This document shows, one piece after another, positions 21,501 to 24,500 of a stretch of DNA of 64,000 nt. The stretch lies in assembly GCF_056746865.1 (NCBI RefSeq), contig NZ_CM163382.1. One strand, 5' to 3'. Position 1 is the stretch's first letter. Each line of letters starts with the position of its first letter. The position numbers were made by a program.

Positions 21501-24500
21501 CTGCCGATACGGAAGTCATTAATCAAAATATGCGCGCCATCCGGCAGAGCCTGCTGATGCAGCCGGATATGGCAGTTGGCATCCACATTGACGATTGCCA
21601 GCGAGTGATCGCACAAACTCAGCAGCTGGTGGGTTATCTGCGAGGAATCACGCGGTAAGTCGATTAAAATCCAATGGTAACGCCCGCTGGCTTTTAGTTG
21701 CTGTAAGCCGGAGCAAATATCGCTCAGCCGGGTTTGCCAGTGCTGTGGATTTTCTTGTTCTTCAATGGATAACTGACCAAAAGGCAGCAAATCGAGTTGC
21801 GAGGTATAGCGCAACCCAGCGTCACGCCAGTCCTGGCCATCCAGCATAGCTCTGGCCCAGCCCTGACGGTGGGTAAAATCAACGTTAAATGACAGGCGCA
21901 ACAAGTTGTCCGGGCAGGCATCGACCACCAGGACATTTTCTCCCAACATTTGTAATGACCAGGCTAATGCGGCGGTGATGGTTGTTGTCCCCACGCCTCC
22001 CCGCACCCCCTGCAATCCCAGTACGGCCATTCACCAATCCCCTACTTTTGTTGCGCAAACTCTGCCAGCAACGGCCAGCGTTTTAATGCCGCGGCCAACT
22101 GTTCGCGTTGGGAAATATCGGCATAATCAATATCAGGCAGTGAAAATGCCTGCTTTAACGCCAAAATATCATTCTGGAAGATATAGCCTATCGCGGGATC
22201 AGGCAGAGTATCTGGTTCATTGTTATTCATTTGCTTGATCCCTATGAAATAACCGTACCGTTCATGAGACAATTCTAACCGTGAGCATTTCGCCGGTTTA
22301 TTGTTTACGGCGAGACGGGAATTTGCTCACTTTTTGACTTTCCGTTACGCAACAAAAAAAGTTAAAAACGAAAAGACTAAAATCACACGTCTTGTGACCT
22401 GCTAAATTGATTCACATGCTAAATCTGATAAGTTTTAATTTCAATGGTAGGTTTATTTCTTAGCTTTCGCTAGTAAACTGATAATCAGACAAAATGATGA
22501 CATGAGGGACATTGTGGACCCTGTATTCTCTATCGGTATCTCATCATTATGGGATGAGCTGCGACATATGCCAGCAGGCGGCGTCTGGTGGTTTAACGTC
22601 GATCGCCATGAAGATGCTATCAGTCTGGCGAATCAAACAATTGCATCCCAGGCTGAAACCGCACACGTCGCGGTCATTAGCATGGACAGCGATCCGGCGA
22701 AAATCTTTCAATTAGATGATTCTCAAGGACCGGAAAAAATAAAATTATTTTCAATGCTAAATCATGAAAAAGGTCTATACTATTTGGCCCGTGATTTGCA
22801 GTGTTCTATTGATCCCCATAATTACCTTTTTATTCTTGTTTGCGCAAATAACGCATGGCAAAACATTCCTGCCGAGCGGCTTCGCTTATGGTTGGATAAA
22901 ATGAATAAATGGAGCAGGTTAAACCATTGTTCGCTTTTGGTAATTAATCCCGGAAATAATAACGATAAACAATTTTCATTGTTGCTTGAGGAATACCGTT
23001 CACTTTTTGGTCTTGCCAGTTTGCGTTTTCAGGGCGACCAACATTTGCTGGATATTGCCTTCTGGTGCAACGAAAAAGGGGTCAGCGCCCGTCAGCAGCT
23101 TAGCGTTCAGCAACAAAAGGGGATCTGGACATTAGTTCAAAGCGAAGAGGCGGAGATCCAACCACGCAGCGACGAAAAACGCATTCTGAGTAATGTTGCT
23201 GTACTGGAAGGTGCGCCACCGCTATCGGAACACTGGCAACTGTTCAACAATAACGAAGTCCTGTTCAATGAAGCCCGTACCGCTCAGGCGGCGACGGTGG
23301 TCTTTTCTTTACAGCAAAATGCGCAAATCGAGCCACTGGCCCGCAGCATTCATACCCTGCGTCGCCAGCGCGGTAGTGCGATGAAAATCCTCGTACGGGA
23401 AAATACCGCAAGCCTGCGCGCCACCGATGAACGTTTGTTATTGGCCTGCGGTGCAAATATGGTTATCCCATGGAATGCCCCACTCTCCCGCTGTCTGACG
23501 ATGATCGAAAGCGTGCAAGGGCAGAAGTTTAGTCGCTATGTGCCGGAAGATATCACTACCTTGCTGTCAATGACCCAGCCGCTCAAACTGCGTGGTTTCC
23601 AGAAGTGGGATGTGTTCTGTAATGCCGTCAACAACATGATGAATAACCCTCTATTACCTGCCCACGGTAAAGGCGTTCTGGTTGCCCTACGTCCGGTACC
23701 GGGTATCCGCGTTGAACAAGCCCTGACGCTGTGTCGCCCTAACCGCACCGGCGATATCATGACTATTGGCGGTAATCGGCTGGTGCTGTTTCTCTCATTC
23801 TGTCGGATTAACGATCTGGATACCGCGTTGAATCATATTTTCCCATTGCCGACTGGCGACATTTTCTCAAACCGTATGGTCTGGTTTGAAGATGATCAAA
23901 TCAGTGCCGAGCTGGTGCAGATGCGCCTGCTTGCCCCAGAACAATGGGGCATGCCGCTGCCTTTAACGCAAAATTCTAAACCGGTCATTAATGCCGAGCA
24001 CGATGGTCGCCACTGGCGACGAATACCAGAACCAATGCGACTGTTAGATGATGCTGTGGAGCGCTCATCATGATGACCATCAGCGATATCATTGAAATTA
24101 TTGTCGTTTGCGCACTGATATTTTTCCCGCTGGGCTATCTGGCGCGGCACTCTTTGCGACGCATTCGCGACACCTTACGTTTGTTCTTTGCTAAACCTCG
24201 TTATGTTAAACCGGCCGGGACGTTACGCCGCACGGAAAAAGCCAGGGCAACCAAAAAATGACTCAATTTACGCAAAATACCGCCATGCCTTCTTCCCTCT
24301 GGCAATACTGGCGCGGCCTTTCCGGCTGGAACTTCTATTTTCTGGTTAAGTTCGGCCTGTTGTGGGCGGGATATCTTAACTTCCATCCGCTCCTCAATCT
24401 GGTGTTTGCCGCGTTTCTGCTGATGCCCATTCCGCGCTACAGCCTGCATCGCTTACGCCACTGGATTGCCCTGCCGATCGGCTTTGCTTTGTTCTGGCAT

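Follow-up and report, generated by a model that had tools for sequence, protein, structure and literature searches.

The stretch of DNA analysed here (the window; 64,000 nucleotides) encodes an intact BcsQ protein with leucine (TTG) at codon 6. Judged by the allele counts among complete E. coli genomes, TTG is the ancestral, species-wide sense codon, and the TAG present at this position in K-12 is a nonsense mutation private to the K-12 laboratory lineage. The window has an ST69-type background, judged by its near-identity to sequenced isolates, and carries a frameshift in bcsA together with a nonsense codon in bcsC, and the bcs system is predicted to be non-functional. We consider this combined reading to be very probable.

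BcsQ is a MinD/ParA-like SIMIBI NTPase. It forms a cytosolic regulatory module with BcsR and BcsE, and the three proteins serve in the assembly and regulation of the cellulose synthase. In the window, bcsQ is located between bcsR and bcsA in the operon bcsRQABZC, which is divergent from bcsEFG (Table 1). The start codon ATG of bcsQ occupies positions 22030..22028 of the minus strand, and hence the plus-strand triplet CAA at 22013..22015, which reads TTG (Leu) on the minus strand as its reverse complement, is codon 6 (M-A-V-L-G-L). The N-terminal reading of the open reading frame (ORF) is M-A-V-L-G-L-Q-G-V-R-G-G. The frame runs uninterrupted through 250 codons, which is the canonical length, and the sole stop is the terminal one.

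Table 1. Features of the bcs locus, given in window positions.
Feature	Position	Strand	Basis
bcsC, pseudogene, premature stop at codon 399 of 1,157	11746..15219	-	
bcsC codon 399, TAA (K399*); AAA/Lys in MG1655 and FCI48	14023..14025	-	
bcsZ, intact	15201..16307	-	
bcsB, intact	16314..18653	-	
bcsA, pseudogene	18664..21281	-	1-nt deletion vs MG1655
bcsA frameshift site, A4 run (A5 in MG1655 and most E. coli), codons 63-64	21092..21095	-	
bcsQ, intact, 250 aa, MinD/ParA-like BcsQ ATPase	21278..22030	-	ORF, Pfam, 6YBU alignment, PGAP
bcsQ codon 6, TTG (Leu), wild-type allele; TAG in K-12	22013..22015	-	sequence and allele counts
bcsR (yhjR), intact, 62 aa	22042..22230	-	
bcsE, intact, divergent operon	22502..24073	+	
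bcsF, intact	24070..24261	+	
bcsG (pEtN transferase), intact	24258..25937	+	

The bcsQ product corresponds to WP_000279519.1 in the PGAP annotation of strain 118UI. It matched the Pfam profile PF06564 (CBP_BcsQ) over profile positions 1-234 of 234 with E=1.1e-114 and a score of 382 bits, the curated cut-off for this profile being 21.3 bits. All 250 residues align with chain A of PDB 6YBU with three substitutions (Q119H, A129S and N171D in the window numbering), and Leu6 is common to both. The N-terminus MAVLGLQGVRGGVGTTT contains the glycine-rich nucleotide-binding loop, and residues 1-118 are identical to those of the 6YBU protein. The BcsQ of E. coli 1094, whose structure is available in the BcsRQ complex (PDB 6YBU/6YAR), is thus like that of the window a protein of 250 aa with Leu6. 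The differences between them are polymorphisms only, except that the BcsQ of the window would have no working synthase to act on. TTG at codon 6 would permit translation of the full 250-aa protein. It should be noted that the TGA stop of bcsQ overlaps the ATG of bcsA (ATGA), which may couple the translation of the two genes.

The initial annotation had read codon 6 as leucine and placed a stop codon at the same position in K-12. Both points held when bcsQ was compared directly with the gene of MG1655 (b3534, NC_000913.3 3695233..3695985), which is an annotated pseudogene in RefSeq. The translation of the latter begins MAVLG*QGV..., and its codon 6 is TAG and not TTG. Over the 111 nt around the bcsQ start, the window and MG1655 differ only at the second base of codon 6, which is T in the former and A in the latter. 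The literature agrees on the K-12 stop (PMC5014196, PMC5944007). Namely, codon 6 of K-12 W3110 is TAG, and its conversion to TTG gave strain AR3110, in which bcsQ was called 'repaired' (PMC5014196). The K-12 change is given as 17 T>A and dates from the common ancestor of K-12 (PMC5944007), and the part of the same paper that cites Serra et al. 2013 states that the repair of bcsQ brought back cellulose production in W3110. TAG at codon 6 terminates BcsQ after 5 residues and renders K-12 cellulose-negative; it is described as removing BcsQ in K-12 and may also act polarly on the neighbouring genes (PMC5944007). The K-12 block would come at an earlier point than that of the window.

The K-12 bcsQ(TAG6) allele (Serra, Richter & Hengge 2013) and the window are alike in the gene, the codon and the operon layout bcsRQABZC/bcsEFG, and cellulose loss is predicted for both. 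The window departs from the K-12 allele in its sense codon TTG and intact BcsQ, in the place of its lesions (bcsA and bcsC), and in its background, which is that of phylogroup D ST69-type strains. Neither TAG at codon 6 (17 T>A) nor a K-12 backbone was found in it.

For the allele census, 61-mers centred on the codon-6 SNP were compared with 5,426 complete E. coli genomes, about 5,250 of which have the locus. The TTG haplotype of the window type was found in 3,551 genomes, and a second TTG haplotype, having in addition the synonymous change GTG>GTT at codon 9, in 1,083. TTG is therefore present in at least 4,634 of the ~5,250 complete genomes with the locus, and the K-12-type TAG 61-mer in 348-349; the other ~260 of the ~5,250 genomes fit none of the three haplotypes. 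In the class with 98.4% identity to the TTG 61-mer, two genomes were sampled, and both carry TTG together with the synonymous change at codon 9. On this sample, and with 1,083 genomes having this codon-9 haplotype, we rejected the idea that other stop alleles are hidden in the class.

The TAG allele was followed up in the 60 best-ranked records and in 60 records evenly spread over the 348, about 110 in total since a few were in both; the evenly spread set was restricted to exact matches with E<=1e-22. All records listed were K-12-type, with K-12-type names and genomes of 4.46-4.79 Mb. They include MG1655, W3110, DH5alpha, C600, J53, HB101, MC4100, TG1, transconjugants and O16:H48 strains. Nonsense mutations of bcsQ have been reported in ST167, ST617 and ST744 (Nhu et al., PMC10881479), which raised TAG at codon 6 as a possible natural allele of the ST10 complex. 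On this sampling of the TAG records, we rejected that possibility. Chance is not a relevant test for codon 6, because TTG is the wild-type state. The census thus points to the K-12 bcsQ stop as a quirk of laboratory strains, with TTG being normal, and this matters mainly for correct annotation.

The relatives of the window were sought among sequenced genomes. E. coli 118UI from urine (Mexico City; NZ_CP032515.1, 4157392..4221391) is separated from the window by 2 substitutions over the full 64,000 bases. A literature search on this strain found no useful sequence-type information. Strain EC6868 (CP095083), published as ST69, phylogroup D, is ~100% identical to the window over 50 kb (positions 1-25000 and 39001-64000), and many further isolates, of human, animal and water origin, matched 25-kb pieces of the window at ~100%. 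By this comparison of sequences, the source of the window is an extraintestinal E. coli of phylogroup D and ST69 type, where ST69 is taken from the near-identity to one published genome, as the window contains none of the MLST loci. Over 24 kb, another strain, FCI48 (NZ_CM172719.1), shares 99.97% identity with the window.

Cellulose is polymerised by BcsA, a GT2 synthase activated by c-di-GMP, and exported by the outer-membrane protein BcsC, which consists of TPR repeats and a beta-barrel. One A is lost from a run in the bcsA gene of the window, which changes CATAAAAACC to CATAAAACC. The shifted frame stops at codon 90 and leaves an N-terminal ORF of 89 aa (21012..21281), and the out-of-register remainder of 753 aa (18664..20925) holds the GT2 and PilZ domains. 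As the old frame downstream of the shift differs from MG1655 BcsA by V231L only, the pseudogene is young. The bcsC product of 398 aa keeps only the N-terminal TPR repeats; the later TPR repeats are lost, and the BCSC_C barrel (PF05420, E=2.8e-120, approximately residues 802-1136) lies downstream of the stop. In the NCBI PGAP annotation of 118UI, bcsA is flagged as 'frameshifted' and bcsC as 'internal stop'.

The bcsA gene of FCI48 (locus 4773..7391) has an intact A5 run and a nonsense mutation, Y66* (TAT>TAA), at approximately window 21084..21086, two codons from the frameshift of the window. Since FCI48 has A5 and the Lys399 codon of bcsC in a near-identical background, the lesions of the window are derived. 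The Y66* mutation is separate from A4, and bcsA has thus been knocked out on at least two occasions within this clonal background.

The gene-by-gene comparison with MG1655 showed that bcsR, bcsQ, bcsB, bcsZ, bcsE, bcsF and bcsG are full length. The A-run upstream of the bcsR start (22231..22233, the ATG being at 22230) is one base shorter than in MG1655 and lies between the putative ribosome-binding site and the start codon, where GCAAAATG is changed to GCAAATG. The exact 62-mer with the shorter run is present in 635 complete genomes. The shorter run was therefore ruled out as a part of the defect and is a common lineage polymorphism.

The initial annotation had also concluded from TTG that the window is not from a standard K-12 lineage. 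TTG alone would not prove this, because AR3110 is a K-12 derivative engineered to carry TTG, and a K-12 derivative with the bcsQ stop repaired or reverted would likewise match MG1655 around the bcsQ start in all but the codon-6 base, as the window does. The surrounding divergence contradicts such an origin. The bcs region of the window is 97.8% identical to that of MG1655 over 15.3 kb, with 337 mismatches in the BLAST alignment, and bcsQ alone has 18 nt differences, which give 3 further amino-acid differences beyond codon 6. A 2.3-kb insertion, IS1397 and a second ldr gene are present in the window and none of them in K-12, whereas the window and the clinical strain 118UI differ at just 2 bases in 64 kb. 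A repaired K-12 strain, the chance of which we take to be negligible, is thus ruled out by how far the window is from MG1655 and how close it is to ST69 genomes, and the placement of the window outside K-12 is borne out. The expectation that a cellulose defect in this strain would have a genetic basis different from that of K-12 was correct at the level of the genotype, namely the bcsA frameshift and the bcsC nonsense codon. A length change of 1 nt in an A-run is, however, a classic error type of some sequencing platforms, and if the bcsA frameshift were a homopolymer error of sequencing or assembly, the bcs operon of the strain would be functional and cellulose production would not be impaired. 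The same A4 allele was found in 54 of 5,315 complete genomes, which come from many laboratories and countries. It co-occurs with the change AAA>TAA in bcsC, which is a substitution and not a homopolymer error, and the exact bcsC TAA 61-mer was found in 52 complete genomes. Moreover, bcsA and bcsC are truncated together in 68% of ST69 Enterobase genomes (PMC10881479). The 54 assemblies and the co-occurring substitution rule out an artefact, which we regard as highly improbable, and the occurrence of A4 in 54 and of the bcsC TAA in 52 independent complete assemblies indicates that the lesions are real and clonal.

With both lesions being real, the 1-nt loss in the A5 run of bcsA would shift the frame at codon ~64 and stop translation at codon 90, and the GT2 and PilZ domains would never be translated in register. 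The K399* codon of bcsC would truncate the outer-membrane export protein before its beta-barrel. With BcsA cut short at residue ~63 and BcsC devoid of its barrel, the strain would then neither polymerise nor export cellulose despite the intact BcsQ, and a cellulose-negative phenotype is predicted for it from the sequence. Some cellulose could still be made if bcsA translation restarted at Met120 or slipped in the A-run, and if export were independent of BcsC. The downstream bcsA frame, otherwise pristine with its single V231L, and the 753-aa ORF with the complete GT2 and PilZ domains would be in line with this, but a restart product would be devoid of the first 119 residues of BcsA, the start signal at Met120 is a supposition, and BcsC would be left without its whole C-terminal barrel. 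A clean downstream frame is expected anyway for a very recent clonal lesion, and genomes of this kind are counted as cellulose-disrupted in the published survey (PMC10881479). Residual cellulose synthesis is therefore very unlikely, and the predicted loss of cellulose is the preferred reading. Two further ideas concern the pattern of intact and damaged genes in a strain that has lost cellulose. The intact bcsR, bcsQ, bcsB, bcsZ and bcsEFG may be kept for a cellulose-independent role, examples of which may be BcsE as a c-di-GMP sink or BcsQ and BcsR in polar organisation; alternatively, bcsA codons 64-66 could be a mutational hot spot, the hits there (the frameshift in the window and Y66* in FCI48) being beyond coincidence. 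Neither idea is required, because the lesions are too recent for neutral decay of the other bcs genes to be visible, and we consider both of them unlikely.

The combination of lesions seen in the window was compared with the survey of Nhu et al. 2024, which sampled 76 sequence types at 100 genomes each (PMC10881479). In that survey, the genotype 'truncated.bcsA + truncated.bcsC' was assigned to 68 of the 100 ST69 genomes, and the other ST69 genotypes were bcsA only (3), bcsB only (1), and bcsB with bcsC (1) (PMC10881479 Supplementary Data 3). For ST69 and ST405, the survey traces the cellulose nonsense mutations to definite branch points (PMC10881479). The window has the bcsA stop at codon 90, bcsC K399* and all other bcs genes in full length, and so the same two genes are truncated as in the published ST69 clade (Nhu et al. 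2024, Nat Commun 15:1441). The two are also alike in the intactness of the other bcs genes, in the ST69/phylogroup D background and in the clonal distribution (54 and 52 genomes). No difference between them was detected at the level of the gene-level 'truncated' flags, which are all that the table of the paper contains. From the matching gene pattern, we infer that the ST69 lesions of Nhu et al. are the A4 allele and K399* of the window.

Similar losses are described for other lineages (PMC10881479). The frameshift at 186 in bcsA of ST95 clade 8 is a convergent knock-out like that of the window, at another position and in another lineage. In ST1193 and in Shigella sonnei, which are different lineages, bcsA and bcsC are both truncated, as in the window; the pair in ST1193 arose independently, in phylogroup B2. 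These lineages and the window have in common that the catalytic subunit and/or the export channel was lost and that the loss became fixed as extraintestinal or invasive clones expanded. The second bcsA knock-out in FCI48 fits the argument for convergent loss made in the paper (PMC10881479). The loss of cellulose in the clone was presumably selected. Convergent loss of cellulose is documented for invasive E. coli, Shigella and Salmonella and has been linked to increased virulence; the window adds one more case and presents no new phenomenon. The K-12 allele has been known since 2013 and the ST69 bcsA/bcsC genotype since 2024. The sole addition is the description of the lesions at the nucleotide level, so that the coordinates (bcsA A5>A4 at codon ~64; bcsC K399*) are now attached to a genotype published at the gene level only.

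Several other features were observed. Matches of the bcsC 61-mer were also obtained at 123 places on plasmid-typed records, for example NZ_CP119405.1 and NZ_CP100527.1. These records are ~77-81 kb in size, carry a bcsC annotation, and may represent bcs clusters on plasmids or pieces of chromosome typed as plasmid; the matches are unrelated to the codon 6 finding. Between kdgK and yhjJ, a 2.3-kb block (4059..6287, minus strand) contains five small hypothetical genes for products of 194, 100, 155, 84 and 141 aa. This block is also present in FCI48 and is absent from MG1655, where just ~95 bp separate kdgK and yhjJ. In a Pfam scan, no profile matched any of the five proteins at E<=0.01, and the block is a possible candidate for a small accessory or defence-type islet.

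Downstream of bcsG, there are two genes of the Ldr family of type I toxins (26024..26131 and 26507..26614, minus strand), and MG1655 has a single ldrD/rdlD pair at this place. The interruption of the BLAST alignment to MG1655 in this region, where it ends and starts anew, is due to the second ldr gene. At position 20592, the window has G, and both 118UI and MG1655 have C. This change, which is V231L in the original bcsA frame, lies in the out-of-register part of bcsA and may be private to the source strain. The transposase of IS1397 (IS3 family), with a programmed frameshift, is located at approximately 34744..36092 on the minus strand according to the 118UI annotation. The insertion has dppA on one side and, on the other, the tRNA-Pro gene upstream of eptB; it is absent from this place in MG1655. 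One of the two differences between the window and 118UI is inside IS1397, at position 35745 (A versus G).
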